The notes beneath the pieces are model-generated. The model saw only the letters and a program-made list of their open reading frames with translations, did not search any database and was not told the origin of the DNA. From an uncultured Acidobacteriota bacterium (GTDB taxonomy: Bacteria > Acidobacteriota > Vicinamibacteria > Vicinamibacterales > UBA2999), in NCBI GenBank assembly GCA_963786365.1, contig CAWAYR010000024.1, positions 145,960-209,959 of the forward strand: a stretch of 64,000 nt of DNA. Direction: 5' to 3'. The translations under genes were made by a program, and so were the position numbers. Position 1 is the stretch's first letter, and every line of letters starts with the position of its first letter. Shown in pieces: positions 4,405-50,872 of this stretch.

Positions 4405-4459
4405 GATGGGTCCATCTCCAGGATGACCAGCCTATACGGTGGCCCCGCCGGCAGCGCAG

Positions 4460-6990: not shown

Positions 6991-7041
6991 TCAGCCGAGC
7001 GGCTGGCCGCGTTCGACGCTTCGAGCCCAGCCGCCCGCCGC

Positions 7042-7896: not shown

Positions 7897-9065
7897 GCGG
7901 CTCCAACCCACACGATGTGATTCGCGTCGTCCGGGTGATCGCCCGCCTCAACATCGGCGGCCCGGCGATCCACGCCACGCTCCTCGCGCGCGGCTCGATC
8001 CGGCGCGGTTCTCGACCACGCTGGTGACCGGCACGGAGGACGCCGCCGAGGGCAACTACCTGGCGTTGCACGGCCGCGACGCAGCGGTCGGAGTCATCCC
8101 CGACCTCGGTCGCGAGATCCGGCCGCTCCGCGACCTGCGGACCTTGTGGACGCTGATGCGGTTGATTCGCCGCGTGCGGCCCGACATCGTCCACACGCAC
8201 ACCGCCAAGGCCGGCGCCGTCGGCCGCCTGGCCGCGATCCTGTGCGGCGTGCCGGTGATCGTGCACACCTTCCACGGCCACGTGCTGCGCGGGTATTTCT
8301 CGCCGGCCAAGACCGCCGTCTACCGCGCCATCGAGCGCCGCCTCGCCACCCGGACCGATCGCCTGCTGACCGTGACCGACCGCGTCCGAGACGAGCTGCT
8401 CGAGCTCGGCGTCGGTCGCCCGGAGCAGTACGCCACCGTGCCGCTCGGCTTCGACCTGGGCCCGCTGCTGCAGGCCGAACGGCGGCGCGGCGAGCTGCGG
8501 CAGGAGCTGCAGGCGGGTGACGCGCCGCTCATCGGCATCGTCGCCCGACTGGTGCCGATCAAGGCCCATGAAGTGTTCCTGGCGGCGGCCGCGCGGGTCC
8601 ATGCGGCCGATGCCGCGTGCCCGGTTCCTCATCGTCGGCGACGGGGAGCGGCGGCAGGCGCTCGAGCAGCTGGTCGACGCCCTCGGGCTGCGCACGGCGA
8701 CGCATTTCCTGGGCTGGCGCGCCGACCTCGACCGGCTCTACGCCGATCTGGACGTCGTCGTCCTGACCTCCCGCAACGAGGGATCGCCGGTCGCGCTGAT
8801 CGAGGCGATGGCGGCCGGCGTGCCGGTGGTGTCGACCGCCGTCGGCGGCGTGCCCGACGTGGTCGAAGACGGGGCGAGCGGCATTCTCGCGGCGATGGAC
8901 GACGATGCGGCGCTGGCCGCCGGGGTGCTCGCGGTGCTCGCCGATCGCGATCGGGCGGCGGCCATGGGGCGTCACGGCCGCGCCCGTGTGGTCGCGACCT
9001 ACTCGGCCGAGCGGCTCGTCGCCGACATCGAGGCGCTGTACACGACGCTGGTGGGATTGTCCTGA
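7893..9065 (+). CDS. Glycosyltransferase family 4 (GT-B); frame changes near 8000 and 8610
   Basis: MSGSNPHDVIRVVRVIARLNIGGPAIHA, then ORF 8024 (VHTHTAKAGAVGRLAA...VHTFHGH), then ORF 8517 (FLIVGDGERR...LTSRNEGSPVALIEAMAAGVPVVSTAVGGVPDVV). The frame change near 8000 reads as a 1-nt deletion. Confidence 0.8.
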
Positions 9066-34049: not shown

Positions 34050-35696
34050 CTAGCGCTGCACGGTGGTCGTGGTGAGCGCCTTCAACGCGGCTTCGAGCGC
34101 AGCGATGCGTTCGGTGAGCAGCTCGATCTCGGCGCTGCGGGTCCGGTCGACCACGAAGTTCTCGAAGAAGACTGAGGCGAGCACCCGCTTGTGCGGGCGC
34201 CCATCGGCGCCCTGCACGGAGGCGGTCACGGTCGTCCAGTCGATCGGCTCCGCGAGACGCGCGATGATGTAGCTCACGTCGAACGTGCCCGGATCGGCCA
34301 TGGCATGGCCGGCAACGTCCGACGACAGCAGGTAGGCTCCCGCGGCGACATTCCGGCCCGTGTCGATGACCCACATCTCACCGTTGCCAACGGCCTCGAC
34401 GAGGTGCGGGTTGACGGATTCGGAGAGGTTGGCGCTGGCGGCGTGCTGACGAGCGAGGTAGGCGCCCATGATTGCGGGGTCGTTCGCCCGCTGGCTCTTC
34501 TTGACGCCGTAGAGAATCTCCGACCCGGGATTGTCTTCAAGGCGGCCGTTGTCCCCGGTCAGTGACACCAGCATCCCGCGCTCGATGACTTCATCCGTGC
34601 GCGCAAAGTGCGAGCCGGTGAACGCGTTGTACGACACAACACCCGCGGCGACATCGATCGTGCCTACCGTAGTGCTGTTGCGCCGGAACCGCACGAGCGT
34701 GCCATCGTCGGGCACTCGGTCGAAGACGGCGACACCTTGAATGCCATTACCGGAGGCTGTGACGGTGAAGTTGCCGCGAAAGCCCGGGGGGTTCAGGGCT
34801 GTCCCGGCTTCGATATCGCCGCTCGTGGCCACCAGGAACTTCGAGTCGCTGCCGATCATGAAATTGATCGAGCCGGTCGGCGAGATGTTGTTGATGCGGT
34901 ACTCGCCGGTGGTGTTGCGGTAGCCCTGGAACTGCCGCAGCGCGCCCGTATGGTCGTAGAACAGCATGCCGGAGTAGGCGGTGGCGCCGCCGCTCAGATT
35001 CTGCACGGCGATGCCGGTCTGCGTGCCCCCGGCGTTGGTGAACCGGAGTGGAACACGTCGAGCGGCGTCGTCGTGTTCACGCCAATCAGCCCGCCGGCGT
35101 CGTAGAGGCTCGAGTTGATCAGGTCGACGTTGTTGAAGAACTTCCCGATGAAGTTCGCGGTCCCGTTGTTCACCAGCGGCACGGGGTTACCATCCCCGGC
35201 GGCTGCGGATCGATCGGCGGTGCTCGGTCGAATCGCTCCGGCGGGCTGCCGGCGTGAGCAGGTAGTCGGCGGCCGGACGCCCGCCGAGGGTGTCGGCGTT
35301 GGCCGCCGAGAGCGCGTAGGGCACGGCCGTGAGCAGGCTACGGGCCGCGGCCGGACCGCCAGCTCTCTGGACGCTCAGCCAGCGGGCCGCGCCCCCGGCG
35401 AAGAGTTCCACCGGCAGCCCGTCGCTCATGGCGCCAAGGAACACCGAATAGCCGCCGCTGCCGTCGATGGAGAGCGCCTGGGTTTCCTGCCAGAGCAGCG
35501 TGCCGCCGGTCTCCTGGTCGTAGATGGAGAATTCCACGAGCTCCGTAGCGCCAACTTGCGTGCCGGTCGTGACCGGCAGCGCGCCGTTCATCCGAATGAG
35601 GCGGTCGGTCGACGGTCCTGAACTCTGCGCGAGGGCCGCGGTGGTGATGAGGGTCAGCACCAGGGCCAGGGAATACCTGAGTGGTGTCGGGCGCAT
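34050..35696 (-). CDS. Secreted tail-fibre-like protein (N-terminal beta-rich module, C-terminal coiled coil); at least 2 frame changes (35010-35260)
   Basis: AGGAG then ATG at 35696, then a signal peptide. ELVEFSIYDQETGGTLLWQETQALSIDGSGGYSVFLG...VPYALSAANADTLGG, then VPLVNNGTANFIGKF...IGVNTTTPLDVFHS, then ORF 34050..35006 ending EIELLTERIAALEAALKAL. The pattern resembles bacterial tail-fibre-domain proteins. Confidence 0.45.
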
Positions 35697-35736
35697 ACGA
35701 GGCTCCTTGGGGGAAGCCGCGCAAACAATACTCAAA

Positions 35737-35836
35737 TCGCCCGCAGCGGACTGCACGACAGCACACGGTTCTGCGGCGAAAATGGGGCGATTCCAGGATC
35801 GGCAGGCCTACATCTGGTTCGGCGACGAGTCGTGGG
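35737..35836 (+). repeat. Relic partial copy of the 5' region and an internal segment of gene 33517..33939
   Basis: 35737-35787 matches 33451-33500 at about 86% by hand alignment. 35786-35836 matches 33668-33719 at about 88%. About 167 bp are missing between the two blocks. It encodes FQDRQAYIWFGDESW versus FQDRQVYVWVDDESW in the parent gene. Confidence 0.75.
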
Positions 35837-36142
35837 CGCCCGCTGTCCCGACGTGCCCGCAATACCGTGCAGGCGGCGCCGACGACCCGCGACCTAGCAA
35901 GACTAATCTCTTGGCCGGCCCGGAAGCGAGACGCCGGTGGCAGTGTCGCGACTCTGAGCAACTCTGAGTCACGACCGCCGAGTTCGCCTCGGATTACGCG
36001 AGTGCGCCTCCAGGCCGCCGCGTCGTCGCGCTTCACGGCACCCCGCTTGCTGTCAGCACACCTCACGGAGTTACCGGCGAGGCGGGTCCTGCGGTCGTGT
36101 GCCGCGGAGGTGCCGCTCGCCGCCCTGCGAGAGGACGACAGC

Positions 36143-39100
36143 ATGCGTGCAGCCTTCGGCGTTCGGTCGATGTTCGTCGCGGGCGTGATGTTGGCAGCCG
36201 TCGCAATGCTGCGCGGTCAGTCACCGCAATCCACCGGCACGTGGGCCGACGCCGGGCTCGGCGGCGCTGTGCCCCGCGGCGGCGCAGCGGTCGCGCTCCC
36301 CGACGGGCGCACGCTGATCCTTGGCGGGGCGGCAGCCGACGATACGCCGTCGAGCGCTGCACTGCTGTACGACCCGAGCACCGGGACACTGACTCAGCGC
36401 CGGCGCGTTGCTGTTCGCACGCACGGGCCACGCGGCAACCGCGTTGAGCGATGGGCGCATCGTGGTGTCAGGTGGCGTCATCGGCGGGCTCGTGACCGGC
36501 GATGTCGAGATCTTCGATGTCGCCGCCGGCACGTCGTCGCTCGCCGCCGTGTTGCCGGAACCGCGCCGCGGACATGCCGCGGCTCGCCTTGCCGGCGACG
36601 CGGTGCTGATGGCCGGCGGAAGCGGCGTCGACGGTACCGTGCTGCGCACGGCCGTCGTGCTCGATCCGGCGACCGGGGCCGCCACCGTTCTGGACAGCCA
36701 GCTGTCGACGGCGCGCACGGACGCGTCGGCGACGCGGCTCATCGACGGCCGGGTGCTGGTGGCTGGCGGCAGCGACGGCGCCGCCGATTGGCCTCCGCGG
36801 AAATCTACGATCCGTTCGCGCAGACTTTCTCGCCGCTCACGACCGCGATGTCGGTGCCGCGTCGCGGTCACGCTGCGATCCTGCTGCCCGACAACGCGTC
36901 GGTCCTCGTCGGCGGCGGCACGTCGAACGGCGTCGCCCAGTCCGCTGTGGATCTCTTCCTGCCGGCCGAGTTCCCCGACCCGTTCTCGTACGGCGTCGGC
37001 CAGTTCGCGCCGACCGGGGCGATGTCGGCGGCTCGCACTGCTGGCGTGACGACGCCGACCGGCATCGAGGGCTATGCCATCGCCGACGGCGGCGGCGCGT
37101 CGAACGCCGAGGTCTACCGTTTTGCGACCATCAGGACCGATAAGGACGACTACGCGCCGGGCGAGCTCGCGCTGATCACCGGCACGGGATGGCAGCCGAA
37201 TGAAACCGTGCGGCTGACGTTCCAGGAAGATCCGGCGGTGCATGACGACTACGTCATCGACGTCGTCGCCGATCCGCAGGGCAACCTGCGCTGGGACCAG
37301 TGGGCGCCGGAATACCACGATCTGGGGGTCCGCTTCTACCTGATGGCGTCGGGCGGCGTGTCAAAGGCACAGACGACGTTCACGGACGCGCTCAAGGTCA
37401 CGGTCAAGCGCAGAAACCCGAATGCGGCGACCTTCAGAGTTGCCAGCGGTTCGACGACTCCCGTGACGTTCGAGCTGATCAACGCCAACACCGGCGGCGA
37501 CAAGAATTCGTCCATCAACATCAGTTACTCGCTCACGGTAACGGGTGCCACGGCCACAGGTATTCCGTTGACGGCCTCTGGCATCACGATACCTAGCAAC
37601 AGCAGCATCTTTCGGACATGGAGTATCGTCGTCCCTACTGGGCCAGCGTCGGCGACCGTCACGTTGTCGGCGACGGTGAACCTCTGCCCGGCGTGTGACG
37701 TTGGGACTGACTCCTATACCATCAACGTCGCCGCGCCACCACCATCCGACTCGACGCCACCCGTGATCACACCGAACATTACGGGCACGCTGGGCAACAA
37801 CGGCTGGTATACGAGCAACGTCGACCTCACCTGGACTGTCACGGACCCCCAGTCGTCAATCTCGTCCTCGACCGGCTGCAGTCCCTCCAGTGTTACGACC
37901 GACACTGCCGGCACGACGTTCACGTGCTCGGCGACGAGCGCCGGTGGCACCAGCAACTCGTCGGTCACCATCAAACGCGACGCGTCCAAGCCGAACGCGC
38001 CGACTGCCTCGGCCACGCCGCCGCCCAATGGCAGCGGCTGGAACAACACCGACGTCACGGTCGCGTTCGCCTCGGCCGGCGACAACGGCCCGAGCGGGGT
38101 CCTGTCGTGCACGCCGTCGAGCACGCTCACCGCCGAGACTGCCGGCACTGCCGTGACCGGCACCTGCACCGACAACGCCGGCAACGTGAGCGACGCCAGT
38201 TCCCTCACCGTGAAGATCGACAAGTCCGCCCCGAATGCGCCGATTGCATCGGCCACACCGGCGCCGAACGCCAGCGGCTGGAACAACACCGACGTCACCG
38301 TCGCGTTCGCCTCGGCCGGCGACAACGGCCCGAGCGGAGTCCTGTCGTGCACGGCGTCGAGCACGCTCACCGCCGAGACCGCAGGCACCGCGGTCTCCGG
38401 CACGTGCACCGACACCGCCGGCAACGTCAGCGGAACCAGCTCGGTCACCGTGAAGATCGACAAGACCGCGCCGAACGCGCCGACTTCCTCGGCGACGCCG
38501 GCGCCCAACGCCAGCGGCTGGAACACCACCGATGTCACCGTCGCGTTCGCCTCGGCCGGCGACAACGGCCCGAGCGGCGTGGCCTCCTGCACGGCCAGCC
38601 AGTCGTTCACGACCGAGACGAGCGGGACTCTGGTCTCGGGCACCTGCATCGACAACGCCGGCAACACCAGCGCGGCGACCGATGTGACGGTAAAGATTGA
38701 CAAGACCGCGCCGAACCCGCCCACGGCCACCCGCACTCCACCGGCCAACGCCGCCGGCTGGAACAACAGCGACGTCACGGTGAGCTTCGTGTCGGCGGGC
38801 GACGTCGGGCCCAGCGGCGTGGCCTCGTGCACGACGCCGACCACCCTGACCGCGGAAACGGCCGGGACGAACGGTCTCGGGCACCTGCACCGACACCGCC
38901 GGCAACGTCAGCGGGACCACCGACGTGACAGTGAAGATCGACAAGACGGCGCCGGACGCGCCGGCGGCGTCGCACTTACCGGCCCCGAACGCGGCGGGCT
39001 GGAACAACGCCGACGTCACGGTCTCGTTCACGCCGTCGACCGACGCGCTGAGCGGCATCGCCTCGTGCACGGCGCCGACGACGTTGACGACCGACACCGC

Positions 39101-40765
39101 GTCGACGGTCGTCTCCGGCACCTGCATTGACAACGCGGGCAACACCAGCGCCAGCACCGACGTCACGGTGAAGCTCGACAAGAGCGCTCCCAACGCGCCC
39201 ACGGGATTCGAGGACGCCGCCGGCCAACGCCGCCGGCTGGAACAACACCGACGTCACGGTGAGCTTCGTGTCGGCGGGCGACGTTGGGCCCAGCGGCGTG
39301 GCTTCGTGCACGGCGCCGACCACCCTGACGGCCGAGACGTTGGTGGGGGGCACGGTGGTCTCCGGGACGTGTACCGACACCGCCGGCAACGTCAGCGGGG
39401 CCACCGACGTGACGGTGAAGATCGACAGGACGGCGCCAGACGCGCCGGCGGCGTCACACGTGCCGGCCCCGAACGCGGCGGGCTGGAACAACGCCAACGT
39501 CACGGTCTCGTTCACACCGTCGACCGACGCGCTGAGCGGCATCGCCTCGTGCACGGCGCCGACGACCCTGACGACCGACACCGCGTCGACGGTCGTCTCC
39601 GGCACCTGCACTGACAACGCCGGCAACACCAGCGCCAGCACCGACGTCACGGTGAAGCTCGACAAGAGCGCTCCGAACGCGCCCACGGGATCGAGGACGC
39701 CGCCGGCCAACGCCGCCGGCTGGAACAACACCGACGTCACGGTGAACTTCGCGTCGGCGGGCGACGTCGGGCCCAGCGGCGTGGCTTCGTGCACGGCGCC
39801 AAGCACCCTCACCGCGGAAACGGCCGGGACGAACGTCTCGGGTACCTGCACCGACACCGCCGGCAACGTCAGCGGGACCACCGACGTGACGGTGAAGATC
39901 GACAAGAGCGGCGCCAAATCCGCCGACGGCATCGCGAACACCGGCGGCGAACGCGGCCGGCTGGAACAACACCGCCGTCACGGTGACGTTCGCCGCGGCC
40001 GGCGACCACGGCCCGAGCGGCGTCGCCTCCTGCACGGTCCTGCCGCCGTTCACCGCCGACACGGGCGGCACCCTGGCGTCGGGGACATGCACCGACGCTG
40101 CCGGTAACAGCAGCGGTGTCACCAGCCTCACGGTGAAAGTCGACACCGTGCTGCCGACCATGGCGGTCACTGGCGTCGCCAATGGGGAGATCTACATCCT
40201 GGGGGCGGTGCCGGCGGCCGCGTGCAGCACGACCGACCCACTGTCGGGCGTCGACGCGGCCGCGACGGTCGCGGTGACCGGCGGCGTGCCTCCGGGCGTC
40301 GGCACCTTCACAGCCACGTGCAGCGGCGCGACCGACAAGGCCGGCAACGCGGCGGCGCCGCCGGTGAGTGTCACCTACCAGGTGCAGTTCGCGCCGGCCG
40401 GCACGACCTGCCTCGGTGCGCCAGCTCATCAGGTGCTGCAGCCGATCAATGTCGATGGCTCGAGCGTCTTCAAGCAGAAGAGCACCGTGCCGGTGAAGTT
40501 CCGTGTCTGCGATGCCAATGGCGTCTCGATCGGCGCCAACGTCGTCGCGGCCTTCAATCTCGTGCAGGTGACCGGCGCCACGGCCACTCCGGTCAACGAG
40601 GAGGTCCAGTCGACGACGCCGGACACGGCGTTCCGCTTCGACCCGACCGCGCAGCAGTGGATCTTCAACACCAACACGAAGCCGCTGTCGGCTCCCCTGG
40701 CATATCGCTACCGCATTTTGCTGACCGACGAAACGACGATCGAGTACGTGTTCACCCTGAAGTAG
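36143..40765 (+). CDS. Giant secreted surface protein: Kelch-like beta-propeller + about 10 Ig-like repeats + C-terminal PxKF-like domain; 5 frame changes
   Basis: Starts MRAAFGVRSMFVAGVMLAAVAML (signal peptide). Kelch-like repeats run through ORFs 35681/36408. Repeats of KIDKxAPNAP...GWNNTDVTVxFxSAGDxGPSGV...GTCTDxAGN continue through ORFs 35681, 38925, 39259 and 39983. The C-terminus is INVDGSSVFKQKSTVPVKFRVCD...FRFDPTAQQWIFNTNT. Confidence 0.8.
37969..40146 (+). repeat. Nine tandem coding repeats of about 240 bp (80 aa) inside the giant surface-protein gene
   Basis: The period is marked by recurring GTGAAGATCGACAAG...GGCTGGAACAAC blocks. Units at 38944-39183 and 39427-39663 are near-identical, as are their neighbours, indicating a two-unit (about 480-bp) super-repeat duplication. 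Confidence 0.85.
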
Positions 40766-40843
40766 CCTGGGCGCACCCGCGGGCCGGCCGGCTTCCTCGC
40801 CGCCGGTCCGCGGCCATCGGCCGGGCGCTGCTAGACTCCTCCG

Positions 40844-42871
40844 GTGCTCGCACGGACGACTCGCTGGGTGCTGGTGGCCGCCTTCACGCTGGCGTCCGCG
40901 CTGCTGGCCGGCGTGCTCGGGCAGGCCAGCCTGCTCCAGCAGCTCGAGCTGAAGACCTACGACGCCCGTCTGCGCGCGGTCGCGACCGGCGAGGGCCCGC
41001 CGCCGGCGATCGCGCAGGTCCTGATCGACGACCACTCGATCCGGCAGCTGGAGCCGATGGTCGGCCGCTGGCCGTGGCCGCGGATGGTCCACGCGGTGCT
41101 GGTCGACTTCCTGGCGCGCGGGCCGGCGACGCTCGTCGTCTACGACGTGCTGTTCAGCGAGGAGGCCAAGGGCACCTCCGAGATCGGCGGCACGACATGG
41201 ACCGGGGCCGAGAGCGACGACGCGCTCGTCCAGTCGGTGGCCAAGGCCGGCAACGTGATCCTCGCTGCCGAGGCGTCGAGCGAGGGCCTGGTCGATGCCA
41301 GCCAGAACGTGCAGCCGGCGCTGGCCGACATCCCGTCACTGCGGGCCCGATGGCCGCTGACCGGCTTCGCCGAGCGGCGGCCGCTCCTGACGCCGCCGTT
41401 TCCGGCGCTGGCGCGGGCCGCCCGCGGCATCGGCCATGCGCGCCTCGCCTACGACCCGGATGGTCCGGCCCGCCGCTACGTGCCGTTCGTCGAGGTCGCC
41501 GGTCACGTCGTGCCCTCGCTGCCGGTGGCCGCGGCGCTGGCGGTGCGCGGCGTCGGCCCCGACCAGGTGTCGGCGACGCGGGCCGCCCTGAGGCTGGGCC
41601 CGGCGCGCGTTCCGTGGGTCGAGCAGGTGGTGCCCGACTACTACGGGCCGGCACAGACGGTGTGGCGCGGGCTGGTGCCGTTCCGCGGGCCGACCATGCG
41701 TGCCGATCGCACGCCGACGTTCCCCTCGTATTCCTTCCAGGACGTGTTCCTCGCCGAACAGCAGCTGCTGGCCGGTGAGACACCCCATCTCGACCCGGCG
41801 GTGTTCAAGGATCGGATCGTCGTGGTCGGGGTCACGGCCGAGGGCCTCAAGGACATCTTCACGACGCCCTTCGGCGAAGGCAACATGCCCGGCGCCGAGT
41901 TCCACGCCAACGTGCTCGACGGCCTGCTCACGAACCGCACCATCGCCCCGGCCGCGCCGTGGCAGCGCGTGTTGACCACCCTGGTGCCGGCGCTGGCGAT
42001 CGGCGTCGTCGGCGCGCTGGCCGCGCCGTGGGCCACGGCGGCCGCGGCGCTGGCCGCGTCGGCGCTGCTCGCGTGGTACACGACACGAGCCCTCGGCCAC
42101 GGCGTGTGGCTGCCGCTGGTGGTACCGGTGCTCGCCGTGGTGCTGACGTTCGTCGCCGACCTGGCGTGGAGCTACTTCGTCGAGGGCCGCGAGAAGCGGA
42201 GGGTCAAACGGCTGTTTTCGCGCTATGTGTCCAAGGATGTGTATCAGCAGCTGCTCGCCAGCCCCGGCGAGGTCGGCCTGGGCGGCGAGCGTCGCGAGAT
42301 GACGGTGCTGTTCTCGGACATGCGCGGCTTCACCACGCTGTCGGAGAGCGGCGAGGCGGAAGATCTCGTCCGCCAGCTGAACCAGTACTTCACGCGCATG
42401 GTGGCGGTGGTGTTCGCGCACCGCGGCACCGTCGACAAGTTCGTCGGCGACATGGTGATGGCGCTGTTCGGGGCGCCGCTCGACGACCCCGACCATGCCG
42501 ATCACGCGGTGCAGACGGCGCTGAAGATGGTCGACGAGCTGCAGGACCTGAACCGGCGCTGGGCGGTGGAGGGCCGGGCCGCCCTCGACATCGGCATCGG
42601 CATCAACACCGGCGAGATGATTGCCGGGAACATTGGGTCCGATACGATCATGAGCTACACCGTGATCGGCGACAACGTGAACCTGGGGGCCCGGCTCGAG
42701 TCGCTCAACAAGGACTACGGCACGCGGATCCTGATCTCCGAGGCGACGCGGCGTCAGTTGAAGGGACACTATGATGTCCGGGCGCTCGGCGAGGTCACGG
42801 TGAAGGGCAAGACCCGGCCGGTGGCGATCTTCGAGGTCCGCACCGACGTGAAGAAAGAGGCATCCGCATGA
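40844..42871 (+). CDS. CHASE2 sensor domain-containing class III adenylate/guanylate cyclase
   Basis: Intact 675-aa ORF with a GTG start. N-terminal TM, a large extracytoplasmic region, three TM helices, then the cyclase motifs TVLFSDMRGFTTLSE, KFVGDMVMALFGAP and GIGINTGEMIAGNIG. Confidence 0.85.
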   Translation: MLARTTRWVLVAAFTLASALLAGVLGQASLLQQLELKTYDARLRAVATGEGPPPAIAQVLIDDHSIRQLEPMVGRWPWPRMVHAVLVDFLARGPATLVVYDVLFSEEAKGTSEIGGTTWTGAESDDALVQSVAKAGNVILAAEASSEGLVDASQNVQPALADIPSLRARWPLTGFAERRPLLTPPFPALARAARGIGHARLAYDPDGPARRYVPFVEVAGHVVPSLPVAAALAVRGVGPDQVSATRAALRLGPARVPWVEQVVPDYYGPAQTVWRGLVPFRGPTMRADRTPTFPSYSFQDVFLAEQQLLAGETPHLDPAVFKDRIVVVGVTAEGLKDIFTTPFGEGNMPGAEFHANVLDGLLTNRTIAPAAPWQRVLTTLVPALAIGVVGALAAPWATAAAALAASALLAWYTTRALGHGVWLPLVVPVLAVVLTFVADLAWSYFVEGREKRRVKRLFSRYVSKDVYQQLLASPGEVGLGGERREMTVLFSDMRGFTTLSESGEAEDLVRQLNQYFTRMVAVVFAHRGTVDKFVGDMVMALFGAPLDDPDHADHAVQTALKMVDELQDLNRRWAVEGRAALDIGIGINTGEMIAGNIGSDTIMSYTVIGDNVNLGARLESLNKDYGTRILISEATRRQLKGHYDVRALGEVTVKGKTRPVAIFEVRTDVKKEASA

Positions 42872-44016
42872 ATCGTCGCATCCTCGTCGCCGCGGCCGGG
42901 GCCCTGGCCCTGGCGCTGCCGGCGTCGGCTCCGGCCGAACAAATCGGCAAGCTGCAGAGCGCGCTGAAGCGCGTGCAGCAGATCAAGGACGTCGAGATGA
43001 CCGAGGCCGACGAGGCTCAGCTCGGCGCCGAGGTCAGCACCCGCATCCGGGCCCGCTACGGCGTGGTCCAGGACCAGGCCGCGCACCGCTATGTGTCGCT
43101 GGTCGGGATGGCGCTGGTGATGGCCAGCTCGAAGCCGGGGCCGAACTGGAAGTTCATCATCCTCGACACCGACGCGGTCAACGCGTTCGCCGCACCGGGC
43201 GGCTTCGTGCACATCACCAAGGGCGCGCTGGCGAATCTGAAGAACGAGTCGGAGCTCGCCGGCGTGCTCGCCCACGAGATCATCCACGTCACCGACAAGC
43301 ACACCATCCGCGCCATCCAGAAGGGCAAGCTGGTGCAGATGGGCGCCGACGAGACCGTGGCCGGCAACAGCGCGCTCATGAGCAAGCTCGCCGACAAGGC
43401 CTACGAGGTGATCGAGAGCGGCTTCGGCCGCGGCGAAGAGCTCGAGAGCGACGAGAAGGGCATCGTGATCGCCAACGCCGTGGGCTACGCGCCGCAGGGC
43501 ATGAACGGCTTCCTGAACATGCTGGTCGAGCGCAACAAGAGCGGGCAGCCGGCCAAGAACGGCCTGTTCGCCTCGCATCCCGAGACCAAGGAGCGCATCG
43601 ACAAGATGACCCAGCAGATCGCGTCGGCCAAGCTCACCTCGACGGCCACCGTCGCCGAGCGCTACACCGCGACGATCACCTTCACACCGGTCGCGGCCGC
43701 CGAGATCGCCACCATCGAAGCGGGGTCGGCCGGCGCCGCCGGGGCCACCGCCAAGCCGGCCGAGGAGCCGAAGAAGAAGGGCCTGGGCGGTCTCACCGGG
43801 GCCTTGAAGCCGAGCGGCGGCGAGCGCAAGTCGGCACAGGTCACCGGCTCGGGCGCGGCCCGCGGCGCCGGCGGCGAAGACCGCCTGGCCAAGGGCGGGT
43901 CGAATCCGGCGCTGGTCGCCGTCACCGTGAGTGCCGCGGACCTCGCCGAGTTCAAGAAGGCGGGGGGACTCGAAATAGCAGGGACCAGGGACCGGGGACC
44001 GGGGACCAGGGACTGA
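42868..44016 (+). CDS. Secreted M48 family zinc metallopeptidase
   Basis: Signal peptide, HEIIH (HExxH) and a downstream EELESDEKG glutamate. ATGA overlap with the cyclase stop. The last 12 codons are encoded by the GGGACCR heptamer array. Confidence 0.8.
   Translation: MNRRILVAAAGALALALPASAPAEQIGKLQSALKRVQQIKDVEMTEADEAQLGAEVSTRIRARYGVVQDQAAHRYVSLVGMALVMASSKPGPNWKFIILDTDAVNAFAAPGGFVHITKGALANLKNESELAGVLAHEIIHVTDKHTIRAIQKGKLVQMGADETVAGNSALMSKLADKAYEVIESGFGRGEELESDEKGIVIANAVGYAPQGMNGFLNMLVERNKSGQPAKNGLFASHPETKERIDKMTQQIASAKLTSTATVAERYTATITFTPVAAAEIATIEAGSAGAAGATAKPAEEPKKKGLGGLTGALKPSGGERKSAQVTGSGAARGAGGEDRLAKGGSNPALVAVTVSAADLAEFKKAGGLEIAGTRDRGPGTRD
43981..44015 (+). repeat. Heptamer tandem array (GGGACCR) x5
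   Basis: GGGACCA GGGACCG GGGACCG GGGACCA GGGACTG. It overlaps the M48 stop codon and ends 6 nt before the MscS GTG. Confidence 0.9.
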
Positions 44017-44021
44017 CAGGC

Positions 44022-45443
44022 GTGCAACTGCCCCTGGTCACGGTCGTCGCGCTGGGCGTGGTGCTGGCGGCGCTCGCCGCCGTGCGCAGCCGGTTCGTGC
44101 GCGCGCGGCTGGCGTTCGCGGCCATGCTGCTCGTCGCCGCCGCCGCGCTGGAAGTCGCGGTCGGCCGCGCCTGGGGCGATCCAGTGCTGCTCGCCGGACT
44201 GGCGAAGCTGTCGATCGTCGCGGCCGGCGTGCTCGCCGCCGTCTCGCTGGCGTTCAATCCGTGGCGCCAGAATCGCCCCTCCGATCGCGTACCGGCGATC
44301 GTGCAGGACGTCATCGTCATCGCGCTCTTCGCGGTGGCGACGACGCTGCTGCTCGACGAGAAGCTGCTCACCACCTCGGCGGTCGGTGCCGTCGTCATCG
44401 GGTTCGCGCTGCAGGACACGCTCGGCAACCTCTTTGCCGGCCTCGCCATCCAGATCGAAAAGCCGTTCAGCGTCGGCCACTGGATCCGCGTCGGCGAGCA
44501 CGAGGGCAAGGTGCAGGAGGTGACGTGGCGCGCCACCAAGCTGCTGACCAAGGCCGGGCAGTTCGTCATCGTGCCCAACAGCGTGATGTCGAAGGACCCG
44601 ATCCTGAATTACTCCGAGCCCACGGTGCCGACCCGGCTCGAGATCGACATCGGGCTCAGCTACGACGCCGCGCCGAACGACGCCAAGCGCGCGCTGCACG
44701 AAGCGCTGGCCAACGCCCCGCTGGTCATGCGTTCGCCCGAACCCGACGTGGTCATCAGCGACTTCGCCGGCTCCTCGGTCAACTACCGCCTCCGCTTCTG
44801 GGTCGACGACTACGGCCGCGATGAAGCCGCGCGCGACCAGGTGCGCAGCAATCTCTGGTACACGCTGCGCCGTTACGGCATCGAGATCCCGTATCCGATC
44901 CAGGTCGAATACAGCCGCGAGGAGCAGGCCGGCCGCCCGCCGTCGCGGATTCGCTACGTCGCCGATCGGCTGGCCGAGATCGATCTCTTCACCGGGCTCG
45001 ACGACGTGGATCGGGCCCGGCTCGCCGAGGCGTGTCCCGAGCACCTCTTCGGCGCCGGCGAGCGCATCGTGCGGCAGGGCGACGCCGGACAGTCGATGTT
45101 CGTCGTGCTCGACGGGCGCGTGCGGGTCACGCTCGAGCCGTCGGGGCAAGAAGTGGCGGTGACCTCACGCGGCGGTTTCTTCGGCGAGATGTCGATGCTG
45201 ACCGGTGATCCCCGCACCGCGACGGTCTCGGCGCTCGACGACGCGCTGCTGCTCGAGATCTCGGCCGAGCGCTTCCGCGAACTGGCGGTGATGCGCCACG
45301 GGCTGGTGGAACACGTGAGCGAGCTGGTGTCGGCGCGGCGGGCCGGGCTGGCGTCGGCACGGGCGGCCGCCGAGGAAGCGCAGGCGGGCGCGCCGAGCAG
45401 GGCGGGGCTGCTCGAGCGGATCAAGAACTACCTCTCGCTCTAG
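44022..45443 (+). CDS. MscS-family mechanosensitive channel with a C-terminal cyclic-nucleotide-binding domain (bCNG-type)
   Basis: Intact 473-aa ORF with N-terminal TM helices. The MscS core is LGNLFAGLAIQIEKPFSVGHWIRV...VIVPNS. The CNB motif is GGFFGEMSMLTGDPRTATVSA. Confidence 0.85.
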   Translation: MQLPLVTVVALGVVLAALAAVRSRFVRARLAFAAMLLVAAAALEVAVGRAWGDPVLLAGLAKLSIVAAGVLAAVSLAFNPWRQNRPSDRVPAIVQDVIVIALFAVATTLLLDEKLLTTSAVGAVVIGFALQDTLGNLFAGLAIQIEKPFSVGHWIRVGEHEGKVQEVTWRATKLLTKAGQFVIVPNSVMSKDPILNYSEPTVPTRLEIDIGLSYDAAPNDAKRALHEALANAPLVMRSPEPDVVISDFAGSSVNYRLRFWVDDYGRDEAARDQVRSNLWYTLRRYGIEIPYPIQVEYSREEQAGRPPSRIRYVADRLAEIDLFTGLDDVDRARLAEACPEHLFGAGERIVRQGDAGQSMFVVLDGRVRVTLEPSGQEVAVTSRGGFFGEMSMLTGDPRTATVSALDDALLLEISAERFRELAVMRHGLVEHVSELVSARRAGLASARAAAEEAQAGAPSRAGLLERIKNYLSL

Positions 45444-45491
45444 GGGGCTCGGGTCCCGGGGCTCGGGACCGGACCGTCACGCTGTCACGCT
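45444..45491. repeat. Heptamer + octamer tandem array between convergent genes; contains a hairpin
   Basis: GGGGCTC GGGTCCC GGGGCTC GGGACCG GACC, then GTCACGCT GTCACGCT. It starts 1 nt after the MscS stop. The last octamer overlaps the stop of the minus-strand gene. Hairpin GGTCCCG-GGGCT-CGGGACC lies at 45452-45470. Confidence 0.85.
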
Positions 45492-46128
45492 ACCAGCGCC
45501 ACGCACCACCACGGCGGCGCTCGCCTTCGTTGTAGCCCTGGTCGTAGCCGCGCTCGAAGCCACGACGGTAGCTGCCCTCGTAGACGCCCTTGGGGCCGTA
45601 CTCGCGGCGGTAGCCCTGGTCGGCATCGCGGTAGCGGCCGTGCCGGCGGGGGTCGTAACGGTCGCGATCGCGGCCGTCGTCCGCGCCGCGCTTGTAGCCC
45701 TCTTCGAATCCGTTGGCGTAGCCGATGTCGTCGGAGACGCCGCCGTAGCCCGAGGGACGCCGCGGTCCCGGCGTTCCGCCGTACCACGGGGTCGGGGCGC
45801 GGCGCGCGCCGGCGCCACGGCCGCCGGCCGAGTAGAAGCCGTCGCGGTAGCCGGCGACGAAGCCGGCCCGGTACTGCTGAGTGTAGGCGTCGCGCCGGTT
45901 GTCGCGGCTGCTGTAGCCGCGGTCGGCGGCGCGGTAGTCGCGGTGGCGCTGGTATTCGAAGCCGCGGCCGCTCCTGGCGTCGTCGCCGCCGGCCCGTGCG
46001 CCGTCGCGGTAACCGCTGTCATAAGCGCCGCCGCCCGAGCCGTCGCGCCGCTGTGCCTCGGCCGGTGCCGCCGCGAGCGCGACCACCGTCAGGGCGGCGA
46101 ACGTGGCAACCAGAAGCTGTGCACGCAT
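45490..46128 (-). CDS. Secreted R/D/Y/G-rich low-complexity protein
   Basis: Intact 212-aa ORF with a signal peptide (AAPAEAQ). Recurrent GYRDG / RDRYD / GYxxGY motifs. No globular domain was recognised. Confidence 0.55.
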   Translation of the reverse strand: MRAQLLVATFAALTVVALAAAPAEAQRRDGSGGGAYDSGYRDGARAGGDDARSGRGFEYQRHRDYRAADRGYSSRDNRRDAYTQQYRAGFVAGYRDGFYSAGGRGAGARRAPTPWYGGTPGPRRPSGYGGVSDDIGYANGFEEGYKRGADDGRDRDRYDPRRHGRYRDADQGYRREYGPKGVYEGSYRRGFERGYDQGYNEGERRRGGAWRW

Positions 46129-46263
46129 GACCGTCTCCCGTCACAGGCAGCTGACGGAAGAACACACTGCACCAGGCGTGCCAATCCGGATAGGGCGGCC
46201 AAGCGGCGACCGGCGAGGCCGATTGGCCCCCGGGACCGCGGCCCTGGGGCCTGGCGAGGGCGG

Positions 46264-46770
46264 CTACTGCGCTGAAAGGAGGACGCGCTCGCCCGAGGCC
46301 GACGTGAAATCGAACAGGACGCCGGGGCCGTAGCGTTCCAGGTCGGCCACCTCCAGGCGCACCCCGTGATCGTCGAGGCCGTTGACGTAGGCGCCGAATT
46401 CAATCGGGCCCGACTTCAGGCGGAGCAGCCACATCGGCAGGGCCACGGTGGCCAGGGCGCGTTCGTCGGGATCCCAGGCCAGCACGTGGACCGTTGTCAC
46501 GGTACCCGGGTTGTTCCGCGTCGCGATGCCCTCGACGTAGCGCGGCTTGCGGTGCTCGTCGAACTCGACGACCGGGCGCACGTCGGCGAAGCGCCGCTTG
46601 GCCTGGTCGAAGGCCGCGGCCGCCTCGGTGCTCGCGACGTCGCGCTGGACCGTCGTGTGCTCGCTGAAGTAGGCCACCGAGATGGCGATGGCGCCGATGC
46701 CCATGAACACGACCAGCACGGCAATCCCCGCCGCGATCGGCAGCCAACGGCGCTTGGTGGAGGTGGCCAT
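46264..46770 (-). CDS. Hypothetical membrane-anchored protein
   Basis: Intact 168-aa ORF with a single N-terminal TM (WLPIAAGIAVLVVFMGIGAIAISVAYF). The sequence is non-repetitive with protein-like composition. Confidence 0.5.
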   Translation of the reverse strand: MATSTKRRWLPIAAGIAVLVVFMGIGAIAISVAYFSEHTTVQRDVASTEAAAAFDQAKRRFADVRPVVEFDEHRKPRYVEGIATRNNPGTVTTVHVLAWDPDERALATVALPMWLLRLKSGPIEFGAYVNGLDDHGVRLEVADLERYGPGVLFDFTSASGERVLLSAQ

Positions 46771-46792
46771 CGTCGATGAATCGCGACGCGGA

Positions 46793-47782
46793 TCAAAGCT
46801 CCAGGGCGGTGCCCGCCCCGGTGTCTTCCGCCCGACGGTACACCAGATCGGCCGCGGCCACGTCCTCGACGGCCATGCCGAGGGACTTGAAGATCGTCAC
46901 CTCGTCGGCCTGACGTCGGCCGGGGACTCGTCCGAGCAGCACCTCGCCCAGCTCGCCGACCACGTGTGACTCGCCGAAGCGGCCTTCGCGGATCCCCTGC
47001 ACGACGTCGCCGGATTCGACCAAGGCCGCCGCCCGCGAGTCGACCACCAGGCGTCCCCGCGCCACCAGCGCCGGCGCCATCTCCCGCTGGTCGGGACGGC
47101 AGGCGCCCACCGAGATGACATGCGCGCCGCTGGACACCCAGGCGTCGTCGACGACCGGCGTCGGCGACGAGGTGACCAGGACGACGATGTCGGCGCCGCG
47201 TACGGCCTCCTCGGCCGACGCACACGCCCGGATCGGCGGTGCCACCTTGCCCGCCATGTCGGCGACGAAGCGCTCGCGGCTGCGCGGCTGTGGACTCCAC
47301 ACCCGCACGTCGGCGAGGGCCCGCACCTCGACCAGCGCTTCCAGGTGGCTGCGCGCCTGCACGCCGGTGCCGAGAATCGCCAGGCGGCTGGCCTCGGGCC
47401 GAGCCATCGCCTTGGCCGACACCGCCGAGACCGCCGCCGTCCGCGCCTCGGTGATGTAGCGCCCGTCCATCACCGCCATGAGCGCGCCGGTCTCGGGGTC
47501 GAAGAGCAGGATCGTCGCCAGGTGCGAGGGCAGCCCCTTGGCCAGGTTCTGTCCGAACACCGTGACCAGCTTCGCCCCCAGTTGCGGCGGCTCCGACACG
47601 TAGGCCGGCATGACCCCGAAGAAGGCCTTCTGCGCGCCGACCGACAGCACCGTACGAACGGGCTGCACCACATCGCCGGCCGAGAAGCGCGCCAGCGCCG
47701 TTTCCATCGCCTGGATGAGATCGCCGGGCGGCAGAAGGGCGGCGACGTGGTGTTCGGTCAGGAGACGGAAGCGCTGTGACAT
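46793..47782 (-). CDS. Ornithine cyclodeaminase / mu-crystallin family protein
   Basis: Intact 329-aa ORF. The Rossmann segment LAILGTGVQARSHLEAL and the overall pattern (GVMPAY...KLVTVF...) are typical of the OCD family. Confidence 0.75.
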   Translation of the reverse strand: MSQRFRLLTEHHVAALLPPGDLIQAMETALARFSAGDVVQPVRTVLSVGAQKAFFGVMPAYVSEPPQLGAKLVTVFGQNLAKGLPSHLATILLFDPETGALMAVMDGRYITEARTAAVSAVSAKAMARPEASRLAILGTGVQARSHLEALVEVRALADVRVWSPQPRSRERFVADMAGKVAPPIRACASAEEAVRGADIVVLVTSSPTPVVDDAWVSSGAHVISVGACRPDQREMAPALVARGRLVVDSRAAALVESGDVVQGIREGRFGESHVVGELGEVLLGRVPGRRQADEVTIFKSLGMAVEDVAAADLVYRRAEDTGAGTALEL

Positions 47783-47979
47783 GGCTAGTGGTCTGTGCGC
47801 GCTGAAACAGTACCGATTGCCGGAGCGCGGCGCCCGGATCGCAAGGCGCGAGGAGCGAGCATATTGGCCGATATGTGAGCGATGAGCAACGCCGCGAGGC
47901 GGGATGCCCCGCCCGGCAGGCGGTATTGATTCAGCGTGGACAGGCCACTAGGTCCGGGACGTCTGGCGATGGTGGCACA

Positions 47980-48903
47980 TCACGCCAGCGTCCGGCGAGG
48001 CCACGCCTCGGCGAGCGCGGCGGCGGCGCGGACCGTGGCCAGGTGGATGGCGACGATGTCGTCCACGTCCGGTGCATATCCGCCGCTCATCACGACCGCG
48101 ACCGGCACGCCGGCGGCGCGGCAGGCGTCGAAGACGACGGCGTCGCGTGCGGCCAGGCCGGCGATCGTGACCCGCAGGCGCCCGAGGCGATCGCCCTCGT
48201 AGGGGTCGGCCCCCGCCAGGTAGAACACGAGGTGCGGGACCTGCGGAGCGAACACCGACGGCAGGTGCTCCGCCAGCGCTGCGAGGTACTCGGTGTCGGT
48301 CGCGCCGTCGGGCAGCTCGACGTCGAGATCGCTCGCCTCCTTGCGGAAGGGGTAGTTCTTCGCGCCGTGCATCGAGAAGGTGAACACCGTCGGATCGTCC
48401 TGGAAGATGGCGGCCGTGCCGTTGCCCTGGTGCACGTCGCAGTCGACCACTGCGAGCCGCGTGCAGCGGCCCTCGCGCTGCAGCACCCGGGCCGCGACCG
48501 CGACGTCGTTGAACACGCAGTAGCCCTCGCCGCGATCGGCGAAGGCGTGATGGGTGCCGCCGGCGAGGTTGACCGACGCCCCATCCTCGAGTGCGGCCCG
48601 GGCCGCGGCGATCGTCGCCCCGGCCGACCGGCGCGAGCGTTCCACCATCGCCGGCGACCACGGGAACCCGATGCGGCGAATCATCCCGGCCGGCAGCGTG
48701 CCGGCGGCCACCGCGGCGACGTAGTCGGGGGTGTGGGCCAGCGTCAGCGCGTCCCACGAGGCGGCCGGCGCCTCGAGGAGATCGGCGGCGGCGACGACGC
48801 CGTCCTCCAGCACGCGCTGCCGCAGCCGCGCGTACTTTTCCATCGGGAACCGGTGCCCCTCGGGCAGCGGCAGCACGAAGTGATCGGAGTAGAACGCGCG
48901 CAT
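47980..48903 (-). CDS. Histone deacetylase-family (arginase-fold) amidohydrolase
   Basis: Starts MRAFYSDHF at 48903. Motifs are NLAGGTHHAF, GYCVFNDVAVA and VVDCDVHQGNGT. Confidence 0.8.
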   Translation of the reverse strand: MRAFYSDHFVLPLPEGHRFPMEKYARLRQRVLEDGVVAAADLLEAPAASWDALTLAHTPDYVAAVAAGTLPAGMIRRIGFPWSPAMVERSRRSAGATIAAARAALEDGASVNLAGGTHHAFADRGEGYCVFNDVAVAARVLQREGRCTRLAVVDCDVHQGNGTAAIFQDDPTVFTFSMHGAKNYPFRKEASDLDVELPDGATDTEYLAALAEHLPSVFAPQVPHLVFYLAGADPYEGDRLGRLRVTIAGLAARDAVVFDACRAAGVPVAVVMSGGYAPDVDDIVAIHLATVRAAAALAEAWPRRTLA

Positions 48904-49004
48904 CGCGATGGCGTTGGACAGCGTAACAGGTGCGACCGTGCTATGACCGCCGCGGTCGGGGCTTGAGCCGCGCGCCTTGGACGGATAAGGTGTCTGCCGT
49001 GGCA

Positions 49005-49835
49005 ATGGCCCGCAGCCCGAGGCGCGACCGGGTAGTGATCGACCCGGCGGAGCGCCGGGCGGCGGTGCTGCGCGTGATCCGCGGCGCCCGCCGCCGGCTC
49101 GCCCTCACCATCTTCCGCTGCAACGACGCCGACGTGCTCGAGGCCGTCGCGGCCGCCGTCGAGCGCGGTGTCGAAGTCGACGTGCTGCTGACGCGGCGCG
49201 CCCGCGGCTGGCGCCGGCGGCTCGATCGCCTGCGGCTGCGGCTGGAGCGGATGGGCGCGCGGGTCACCCGGCACGGCGCGCGGGCGACCAAGCATCATGC
49301 GAAGTACGTCGTCGCCGACCGCGGACCGCTACTCGTCGCCTCCTTCAACCTCACCCGCAAGTGCTTCACGCGCACCTGCGACTTCGGGGTGCTCACCTGG
49401 GATCCGGGGGCGGTGGCCGACGCCTGGCGGCTCTTCGACGCCGATCTGGCCCACCGCCAGCTGCCGGTGGCCGCGGCCCGGGCCTCGCGGCTGGTGATCG
49501 GGCCGGAATCGGCGGCGCCAGCCGTGCGGGCGCTGCTCGCCGACGCCCGCCGCCACATCCGGATCATCGACCACAAGCTCGACGACCCGCGAGTGAAGCG
49601 GCTGCTGAAGCGCAAGGCTCGCGACGGCGTGCGGGTCGACCACCTGGCCGCGCGCGTCGTCGGCCGCCACGATGCGCACGGCAAGGTCGCGATCGTCGAC
49701 GGCCGGGTCGCGCTGGTCGGCAGCCTGGCGCTGTCGGCCACCAGCCTCGGCCTGCGCCGCGAGCTCAGCCTCCTCGTGCACGAACCGTCCGCGGTGCGAC
49801 GGCTCGCGGCCTTCTTCGACGCCGTCACCGGCTGA
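49005..49835 (+). CDS. Phospholipase D-like protein with two HxK motifs
   Basis: Starts MARSPRR at 49005. The first motif is TKHHAKYVVAD and the second is DAHGKVAIVDGRVALVGS. Confidence 0.7.
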   Translation: MARSPRRDRVVIDPAERRAAVLRVIRGARRRLALTIFRCNDADVLEAVAAAVERGVEVDVLLTRRARGWRRRLDRLRLRLERMGARVTRHGARATKHHAKYVVADRGPLLVASFNLTRKCFTRTCDFGVLTWDPGAVADAWRLFDADLAHRQLPVAAARASRLVIGPESAAPAVRALLADARRHIRIIDHKLDDPRVKRLLKRKARDGVRVDHLAARVVGRHDAHGKVAIVDGRVALVGSLALSATSLGLRRELSLLVHEPSAVRRLAAFFDAVTG

Positions 49836-49849
49836 CGGACGAGCCAAGA

Positions 49850-50872
49850 ATGATTCACCACATCCGCACCATCGACGCCCATACCGCCGGGGAACCCCTG
49901 CGGCTGATCGTCGACGGGCTGCCGACGCCCGAGGGCGCGACCATGCTGGCCAAACGCCAGTGGGCGATGAAACACCTCGACCACCTCCGCCGGGCGCTGA
50001 TGCTCGAGCCGCGCGGCCACGCCGACATGTACGGGGCCTTGCTCACCGAGCCGGTGACCCCGGGCGCTCACGCCGGCGTGCTCTTCATGCACAACGAAGG
50101 GTGGAGCACGATGTGCGGCCACGGCGTCATCGCCGTCTCGACCATCGCCGTCGAGCGCGGGCTGATGTGGGACGCCGCCAGCGGCCCCGGGCCGGGCGAC
50201 GTCGAGATCGTCCTCGATGCGCCGGCCGGGCCGGTGCGCGCAGTGGCTTGCCAGTCGATCAACGAGGGCCGCACCCACGTGCCGCACGTGTCGTTCCGCA
50301 ACGTGCCGTCGTTCGTGCTCGCCGCCGGCGTGCCGCTGGCGCTTGCCGGCCGTGCCTGCACCGCCGACGTCGCCTTCGGCGGCGCGTTCTATGCCATCGT
50401 CGACGCCGAGGCGGCGGGCCTGTCGGTGGACCCGGCCAAGCTCGGCGAGCTCAAACGGGTCGGCATGGCCATCGCCCGCGACGTCGAGCGGCTGGTGAAG
50501 GTCGTGCACCCCACCGAGCCGGGGCTGACCGGCATCTACGGGACGATCTTCACCGCTCCGGCGCGGGCCGATGGCGCCCACTTGCGCAACGTGACGGTGT
50601 TTGCCGACGCCGAAGTCGACCGGTCGCCCTGCGGCACCGGCACAGCGGCGGTGATGGCCGTGCTCGACGAGATGGGAGTGCTGGGCGGGGACGCGCCCTT
50701 CGTGCACGAGAGCATCATCGGCACCTGCTTCAGCGGCCGGGTCGCCGCCCGCACCCGGGTCGGCGATCATGCCGCCATCGTCCCTGAAATCACCGGCAGC
50801 GCCTGGATCACCGGCGAACACACGTTCCTGGTCGATGGCGACGACCCGCTGCGAGCCGGATTCAGGATCTGA
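49850..50872 (+). CDS. Proline racemase family enzyme (Cys/Cys type: proline racemase or hydroxyproline 2-epimerase)
   Basis: Starts MIHHIRTIDAHTAGEPLR at 49850. The catalytic pair is STMCGHG and DRSPCGTG. Confidence 0.8.
   Translation: MIHHIRTIDAHTAGEPLRLIVDGLPTPEGATMLAKRQWAMKHLDHLRRALMLEPRGHADMYGALLTEPVTPGAHAGVLFMHNEGWSTMCGHGVIAVSTIAVERGLMWDAASGPGPGDVEIVLDAPAGPVRAVACQSINEGRTHVPHVSFRNVPSFVLAAGVPLALAGRACTADVAFGGAFYAIVDAEAAGLSVDPAKLGELKRVGMAIARDVERLVKVVHPTEPGLTGIYGTIFTAPARADGAHLRNVTVFADAEVDRSPCGTGTAAVMAVLDEMGVLGGDAPFVHESIIGTCFSGRVAARTRVGDHAAIVPEITGSAWITGEHTFLVDGDDPLRAGFRI

Follow-up and report, generated by a model that had tools for sequence, protein, structure and literature searches.

A three-gene operon in a 64,000-nt stretch of DNA from a soil acidobacterium (order Vicinamibacterales, phylum Acidobacteriota), analysed here over its whole length and referred to as the window, encodes a CHASE2 receptor adenylate cyclase, a secreted M48 zinc protease and an MscS-type channel with a cNMP_binding domain (MscS-CNB). 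The three genes probably form a single functional relay, in which a CHASE2/M48 input would lead through cyclic AMP (cAMP) to the channel. That the protease and its C-terminal tail act directly on CHASE2 signalling is a possibility to which we give slightly less than even weight. More tentative, and on balance doubtful, is the widest reading, that CHASE2 receptors are protease-coupled sensors across phyla, served by a dedicated M48 clade and a ~60-aa tail and driving a cAMP-gated MscS channel in Acidobacteriota.

Organisation of the operon

Positions are those of the window, which has a G+C content of ~70%; the names borne by close M48 homologues assign the host to Vicinamibacterales. The three open reading frames (ORFs) were re-derived by ORF calling and their domains assigned with Pfam. 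All three are intact, share the plus strand and run head to tail, as an earlier reading of this DNA (the original prediction) had stated. The ATGA in which the cyclase stop overlaps the M48 start, also described there, is present in the sequence. This overlap suggests translational coupling of the cyclase and M48, and the gene arrangement points to co-transcription of all three genes.

40844..42871, plus strand: gene 1, CHASE2 receptor and class IIIb adenylate cyclase, 675 aa (ORF calling, Pfam, hydropathy)
42868..42871, plus strand: ATGA, cyclase stop overlapping the M48 start (read from the sequence)
42868..44016, plus strand: gene 2, secreted BepA-like M48 zinc protease, 382 aa (ORF calling, Pfam, PDB profiles, Foldseek, AlphaFold2)
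43789..43974, plus strand: M48 tail module, aa 308-369 (alignment, AlphaFold2, hhalign)
44022..45443, plus strand: gene 3, MscS-type channel with a cNMP_binding domain, 473 aa (ORF calling, Pfam, PDB profiles, hydropathy)

Gene pairings outside the Vicinamibacteria

Evidence from outside the Vicinamibacteria carries the argument and is stronger than the counts within that group. Any two of the three genes can be found side by side with the third missing, in differing contexts. M48-tail and channel without a cyclase are found in L088/L089 and in L001, L010 and L020. Cyclase and channel without M48 are found in another acidobacterium (L174), where a CHASE2 cyclase is directly followed by MscS-CNB. 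Cyclase and M48 without the channel are found in five Vicinamibacteria loci (L021, L023, L030, L042 and L043) and in Burkholderiales-type loci. Two other Acidobacteriota (L171 and L172) carry an M48-tail gene with MscS-CNB 0-10 nt further on and a CHASE2 cyclase gene divergent next door. The producer-effector link between cyclase and channel, originally proposed for the window operon, holds outside the clade too, in L174, L171 and L172. The L172 locus (528-9055) is the most elaborate in composition, with three cyclase genes (two CHASE2, one HAMP) and a FecR-TPR protein gene around one M48-tail/MscS-CNB pair.

More distant relatives of M48 (30-38% identity, G+C 0.36-0.73) repeatedly show another arrangement, CHASE2/SH3b/M48: a CHASE2 protein, in most cases with a cyclase domain, then a secreted 155-195-aa protein with a bacterial SH3 domain and then a ~280-aa tail-less M48. 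Operons of this CHASE2/SH3b-tail/M48 kind are found in taxa with GC of 0.41-0.69, including Burkholderiales; in a Burkholderiales metagenome-assembled genome (L170), 4-nt overlaps occur at both the cyclase/SH3b and the SH3b/M48 junctions. Considering the 24 loci with at least 3 kb of sequence upstream of M48, CHASE2 lies directly upstream in 7/8 with an SH3b-tail gene versus 0/16 without one (Fisher exact about 2e-5, calculated from the counts). In a neighbour-joining tree of the protease domains, drawn without support values, SH3b-linked and tail-bearing M48s fall together, apart from other M48s. The Burkholderiales operons suggest that the CHASE2-M48 partnership is general and no acidobacterial oddity. 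The earlier proposal that M48 serves the input side of CHASE2 gains indirect support from this sister M48 clade beside CHASE2 in other phyla and from the tail that the two systems share.

A tail module shared by M48 and SH3b proteins

The M48 tail module, ~60 aa in length, contains the motif ...VTGSGAARG... followed by ...VTVSAADLAEFKKAGGL, and its conservation extends to relatives of 34% overall identity; R332 and F362 do not vary, and no Pfam model covers the segment. The C-termini of the SH3b proteins display the same pattern, for example ...ASAGARGL...ITDQEVEDFLKKGELG. Alignment of the two profiles with hhalign yields a probability of 92.8%, an E value of 3.9e-7 and a score of 40.4 over 62 columns; the reversed control reaches 13.8 and none of 20 column-shuffled controls exceeds 12.1. 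A cruder earlier profile comparison had given a probability of 77.6%. By these profile alignments the M48 tail and the SH3b-protein C-terminus are homologous, and therefore represent one module, which in Acidobacteriota is attached in cis to the protease and elsewhere sits on an SH3b carrier.

The AlphaFold2 (AF2) model of M48 assigns aa 341-370 predicted local distance difference test (pLDDT) values of 77-91, following a disordered linker. Such high confidence after a long linker suggests that the tail docks on the protease core, where it could act as a regulatory or substrate-like element. A tblastn search of plasmids with the SH3b-tail protein returned no match.

Domain architecture and predicted activities

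Pfam matches of all three proteins lie far above the curated cut-offs. Their domains, helices and functional sites are as follows.

Gene 1, aa 8-28: first transmembrane (TM) helix (hydropathy)
Gene 1, aa 21-387 (nt 40904-42004): periplasmic CHASE2 domain
Gene 1, aa 376-438: three TM helices (hydropathy)
Gene 1, aa 484-658 (nt 42293-42817): cytoplasmic cyclase domain
Gene 2, aa 1-23: signal peptide, Sec-type, without a lipobox Cys
Gene 2, about aa 44-253: protease core
Gene 2, aa 136-140 (nt 43273-43287): HEIIH
Gene 2, E191: third zinc ligand
Gene 2, H237: counterpart of BepA H246
Gene 2, aa 281-340: disordered linker (AF2)
Gene 3, aa 3-143: about five TM helices (hydropathy)
Gene 3, aa 132-198: beta domain
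Gene 3, aa 207-289: C-terminal MscS domain
Gene 3, aa 343-421 (nt 45048-45284): cyclic-nucleotide-binding (CNB) domain
Gene 3, aa 385-404 (nt 45174-45233): phosphate-binding cassette

Gene 1 matches CHASE2 (PF05226, E 6e-53, 180.5 bits versus a cut-off of 26.3) and Guanylate_cyc (E 3e-27). Because one N-terminal TM helix, CHASE2 and then three TM helices precede the cyclase, CHASE2 sits between that helix and a C-terminal TM bundle and is predicted to be extracytoplasmic, facing the periplasm, with the cyclase in the cytoplasm. Pfam and topology together bear out the predicted joining of a CHASE2 sensor to a class III cyclase. The best solved relative of the cyclase domain is Pseudomonas aeruginosa CyaB (3r5g, E 8e-39), with FSD, DKFVGD and YTVIGDNVNLGARLE aligned. 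The metal-binding aspartates D492 (FSD) and D536 (FVGD) align with those of CyaB and are Asp in 74/75 and 73/75 orthologues; the substrate-binding K532 and the class IIIb T606, which replaces Asp, are each kept in 72/75, and the transition-state residues N613 and R617 in 72-73/75. In the same alignment, Glu takes the place of K532 in the guanylate cyclase Cya2 (2w01); with Lys there, gene 1 is expected to use ATP as its substrate. Gene 1 is a class IIIb adenylate cyclase by all sequence criteria, predicted to synthesise cAMP. Inactivity of the cyclase had been named as a result that would speak against the proposed circuit; the catalytic residues are kept in 72-74/75 orthologues, as would be expected of an active enzyme.

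The protein between cyclase and channel matches Peptidase_M48 (PF01435, E 1e-23, 84.3 bits versus a cut-off of 20.3), and H136, E137, H140, E191, D195 and H237 are invariant in 82 M48 orthologues. Pfam, the zinc ligands and the signal peptide substantiate its earlier description as a secreted HExxH M48 protease. The solved structures closest to it are those of a Geobacter M48 (3c37; PDB profile, E 3e-31) and the protease half of BepA, as also found with Foldseek. Assignment as BepA itself is rejected (NF052400, 105.8 bits versus a cut-off of 570; the protease half alone aligns and there is no TPR match), as is assignment as LoiP (NF052399, 53.4 bits versus a cut-off of 365; signal peptide without Cys). 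The protein therefore has a predicted BepA-like fold, yet is neither BepA nor LoiP.

Gene 3 matches MS_channel_2nd (PF00924), MS_channel_3rd (PF21082) and cNMP_binding (PF00027, E 2e-22, 79.7 bits), with PF00924 and PF21082 above threshold. Structures matched by alignment are MscS and YnaI, over the pore helix and the cytoplasmic domains, and the CNB domains of the protein kinases PKA and PKG. The phosphate-binding cassette FGEMSMLTGDPRTATV is intact and aligns with the PKG and PKA cassettes; G388, E389, R398 and A400, the residues whose absence was to count against the original prediction, are kept in 70-72/72 orthologues, and the pore motif is conserved in the 72 as well. The Pfam and PDB alignments agree with the architecture first proposed, an MscS channel with a C-terminal CNB domain, and gene 3 conforms to the sequence-level definition of a cyclic-nucleotide-gated channel of bacteria (bCNG). 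The likely ligand is cAMP. The channel is predicted to expose only short loops, of about 7 aa, to the periplasm.

In L101, one of the CHASE2/SH3b-tail/M48 operons, a gene for a class-II cAMP phosphodiesterase (PF02112, 59 bits; 4324-5103) lies ahead of the CHASE2 cyclase, and in other lineages a metallo-beta-lactamase (MBL)-fold gene follows MscS-CNB (L173, 7476-8300; L174, 7550-8374). Both kinds of gene product are possible degraders of the messenger. The Lys/Thr pair of the cyclase and the L101 cAMP phosphodiesterase favour cAMP as that messenger. Paralogues of the three genes, a phosphodiesterase gene and an MBL gene were sought in the window, and none was found. The circuit had been called self-contained; the three-gene unit is real, and its self-containment is not borne out, the window being without a phosphodiesterase gene and some relatives having one.

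Conservation in the Vicinamibacteria and other Acidobacteriota

The M48 alignment, scanned against one genome per species, returned 483 relatives, of which the best 80 loci are all from Vicinamibacteria or Acidobacteriota. Related loci were judged by tblastn and ORF analysis, with 71 informative species-level loci having sequence on both sides. Three intact colinear genes are present in 60/71 of these, and a further three (L011, L019 and L078) have an interrupted cyclase ORF, giving 63/71. The triad persists at M48 identities as low as 52% and CHASE2 identities as low as about 40%. A gene-neighbourhood analysis had been proposed as a check on the original prediction, and the one made here, starting from M48, finds the adjacency in related genomes.

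About 51/74 related loci (M48 identity 52-91%) retain the 4-nt overlap of the cyclase stop with the M48 start, and the functional residues of the three proteins are essentially invariant across 72-82 orthologues. Neither the adjacency nor the residues are due to chance, since both recur in dozens of relatives. In one locus (L017), 6 kb of inserted sequence separates cyclase and M48. Cyclase and M48 are also found on ten additional metagenome contigs (L090-L099), of which six have a same-strand MscS-CNB gene downstream; three end before the channel position, and in L097 the channel is on the opposite strand.

In L085 (2081-4969), cyclase and M48 form a 962-aa in-frame fusion, followed by MscS-CNB. 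The junction drops the cyclase end and the first M48 residues and keeps the hydrophobic core of the signal peptide and its AxA site (AWA|Q), an arrangement that is topologically sensible as predicted from the sequence. Other called fusions (P0163, P0225 and P0256) look like truncations or frameshifts.

Proposed mechanism and alternatives

Gene order, intact catalytic and binding residues, their conservation and the tail homology are direct observations, on which the following model builds. The CHASE2 domain would face the periplasm, with the class IIIb cyclase making cAMP in the cytoplasm. M48, exported by its signal peptide and presumably co-produced with the receptor by way of the overlapping stop and start codons, would form together with its tail the periplasmic input apparatus of the CHASE2 receptor. 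Control of the receptor would most likely be proteolytic, with the tail module or CHASE2 itself as the substrate. In other phyla, the tail would reside on a separate secreted SH3b protein, presumably of the peptidoglycan-binding type, encoded between the CHASE2 and sister-clade M48 genes. The cAMP produced would bind the CNB domains under the MscS-type channel and alter its gating, converting a periplasmic event into ion or solute flux. We infer the direction of information flow, as well as any proteolytic step, from the sequences.

Several observations weigh against this relay or its wider extension. The unit is not obligatory: the channel gene is missing in 5/71 loci, the five Vicinamibacteria named above, and an adjacent cyclase is missing in 2/71 (L010 and L020). 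Two loci with M48 42% identical to that of the window (L088 and L089) encode a MASE3-PAS histidine kinase, M48-tail and MscS-CNB and no cyclase, and two with tail-bearing M48s of 37-39% identity (L083, 995-11265; L087, 1767-10880) have no detected CHASE2. The cyclase::M48 fusion is known from one contig at 3.5x coverage, the protease-domain tree lacks support values, and the AF2 model of the SH3b-tail protein (mean pLDDT 51, with its SH3 control domain low too) is too poor for use. A promoter scan found none, which adds to the lack of a convincing terminator. Lastly, much of the triad conservation in Vicinamibacteria could be plain inheritance.

The best-placed alternative, which we nevertheless consider unlikely, keeps the cyclase and channel as a cAMP circuit and makes M48 a general quality-control protease of the BepA/LoiP type, co-expressed under envelope or osmotic stress and having no input role. 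It draws on the closest M48 relatives, BepA and the uncharacterised Geobacter M48, on the envelope-associated domains of near relatives, such as OmpA-C and DUF4412, and on L174, in which the cyclase is followed by the channel without M48. Scores far under the BepA and LoiP cut-offs speak against it, as does a monophyletic-looking M48 clade tied to CHASE2 genes in several phyla. The conserved 4-nt stop/start overlaps, the in-frame cyclase::M48 fusion and the tail common to M48 and the CHASE2-linked SH3b proteins count against it too.

Alternatively, M48 and its tail might act on the channel, with the protease or a released tail peptide regulating or maturing MscS-CNB from the periplasm. An M48-tail/MscS-CNB pair without an adjacent cyclase, as in L088/L089 and in a group comprising L001, L010 and L020 (cyclase losses counted as two or three), favours such a role, and the 0-10 nt spacing in L171 and L172 and the called proteins that run from M48 into MscS (P0256) point the same way. 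The predicted periplasmic channel loops of only about 7 aa speak against it, however; outside Acidobacteriota, M48/SH3b-tail accompanies CHASE2 without any channel, and five Vicinamibacteria retain cyclase and M48 after the channel is gone from the locus. We regard this channel-side role as quite improbable.

Very improbable is inherited synteny without functional coupling, with the genes merely kept together in one bacterial class. Conservation of the triad in Vicinamibacteria alone proves little because downstream synteny is kept too: the opposite-strand genes for a 168-aa TM protein, an ornithine cyclodeaminase and a histone-deacetylase-family enzyme are conserved in 48-62/81 loci, and losses of cyclase or channel are tolerated. 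Triad conservation in this class was accordingly downgraded from sufficient evidence. All three pairings recur across contexts and lineages, though, the stop/start overlaps are conserved and the upstream context is conserved in 0/64; a cAMP producer beside a cNMP-binding effector also matches biochemical logic, beyond mere position.

Relation to known systems

Cyclic-nucleotide-gated MscS homologues were described as bCNG channels by Caldwell et al. 2010 and Malcolm et al. 2012, as cited in a 2026 review (PMC13591265), according to which their physiological role is unknown, no structure is available and they are mostly cyanobacterial. Gene 3 shares with them the MscS pore helix, the beta and C-terminal domains and a CNB domain with an intact cassette, and differs in being acidobacterial, in its about five TM helices and in its operon with a presumed cAMP source and a protease. 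In the operon, a bCNG-type channel and a candidate source of cAMP stand directly side by side.

The signals of CHASE2 domains are unknown save for indirect, partner-dependent cases (PMC5192318, PMC13001267), and the operon sets a candidate accessory system, M48 with its previously unrecognised tail, beside CHASE2. In the Sinorhizobium meliloti CyaD1/CyaD2/CyaK-NsrA-Clr cascade, CHASE2 cyclases need an envelope accessory and respond to a signal of protein nature (PMC13001267). Both systems use CHASE2 receptor adenylate cyclases, whereas the accessory NsrA is an outer-membrane beta-barrel and the effector Clr a transcription factor, in place of which the window has M48-tail and a channel. In the Burkholderia 'BiofilmReg' operon, a CHASE2 histidine kinase is co-encoded with a LysM-FecR periplasmic protein (PMC5192318). 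CHASE2 thus stands there beside a secreted protein of the peptidoglycan-binding type, which parallels SH3b-tail in the Burkholderiales-type operons; in contrast, BiofilmReg has a two-component output, no protease and no tail, and LysM/FecR is unrelated to SH3b or the tail. A partner protease is plausible because CHASE2 sensors are already known to need envelope partners (NsrA, LysM-FecR).

With BepA, LoiP and 3c37, the window M48 shares the fold and zinc site (HExxH, downstream Glu and the BepA H246 counterpart). It differs from BepA and LoiP in having no TPR and no lipoprotein signal, and in its own tail and gene context. Prokaryotic K+ channels of the MloK1/SthK type also carry a cAMP-binding domain on a bacterial channel, as gene 3 does, but form a tetrameric K+ pore, unlike the heptameric MscS pore.

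No publication was found that links CHASE2 with M48, peptidase or SH3b proteins, nor one with a bCNG/MscS-cNMP channel in an operon with a cyclase, the primary bCNG papers lying outside the search. Within the same bounds, the original remark that no three-gene module of this composition was known to have been described stands, as we found no published description of the unit. As read from the genes, it consists of known parts in a new combination, to which are added the tail module and a CHASE2-M48 partnership that spans phyla. If the proposed mechanism is correct, the operon would link periplasmic proteolysis to ion flux in a direct relay by way of cAMP, and would supply the first physiological context for bCNG channels.

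The M48 C-terminus, expression signals and flanking genes

Two minor features lie at and beyond the 3' end of M48.

43975..44016, plus strand: M48 C-terminal extension, 13 codons, found in the window sequence alone (alignments, Tandem Repeats Finder)
45513..45525, plus strand: weak terminator-like hairpin, 70 nt 3' of the MscS-CNB stop

In the alignment, M48 proteins of relatives end in ...GGLK*, ~13 codons before the window's stop. A 1-nt difference near 43975 removes this family stop, and the window ORF reads on for 13 codons through a CAGGGAC x5 repeat (43979-44013) to a TGA 5 nt before the channel GTG. The close packing of M48 and channel is therefore a local feature. A gap of 5 nt ahead of the GTG at 44022, as first noted, is present but peculiar to the window sequence; spacers in relatives span 3 to about 200 nt. 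Both the extension and the gap were rejected as meaningful features, being products of a local stop-codon loss. The spacers of L001-L018 contain short G-rich tandem repeats of 7-8 nt, differing between relatives.

The hairpin is the sole terminator-like site in 40000-46500 and is not significant (1 seen versus 1.7 expected). An Rfam scan of the same interval gave no matches.

The CHASE2-less loci L083 and L087 share a quite different context that is itself conserved, with the gene order trypsin-like protease, TPR-CHAT protein, 250-aa unknown, M48-tail and a 544-721-aa unknown.

Directly upstream of the operon, positions 35681-40765 encode a large surface protein with Kelch and Ig-like domains, containing a 240-nt tandem repeat of 8.5 copies (array 37990-40062). 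Its repeat peptide runs on in four ORFs in different frames, indicating a frameshift-broken gene or mis-assembled repeats. Downstream, 45490-46128 on the minus strand encodes a low-complexity protein of 212 aa, enriched in R, D, G and Y, with GYRDG-like repeats and an N-terminal hydrophobic segment. It has no Pfam match, and a homologue lies downstream of the operon in 22/81 related loci. The conserved convergent neighbourhood at 46264-50872 comprises genes for the 168-aa membrane protein, the ornithine cyclodeaminase, the histone-deacetylase-family enzyme, a PLD-like protein and a proline racemase. In most Vicinamibacteria loci, synteny with the operon extends to the first three of these genes.

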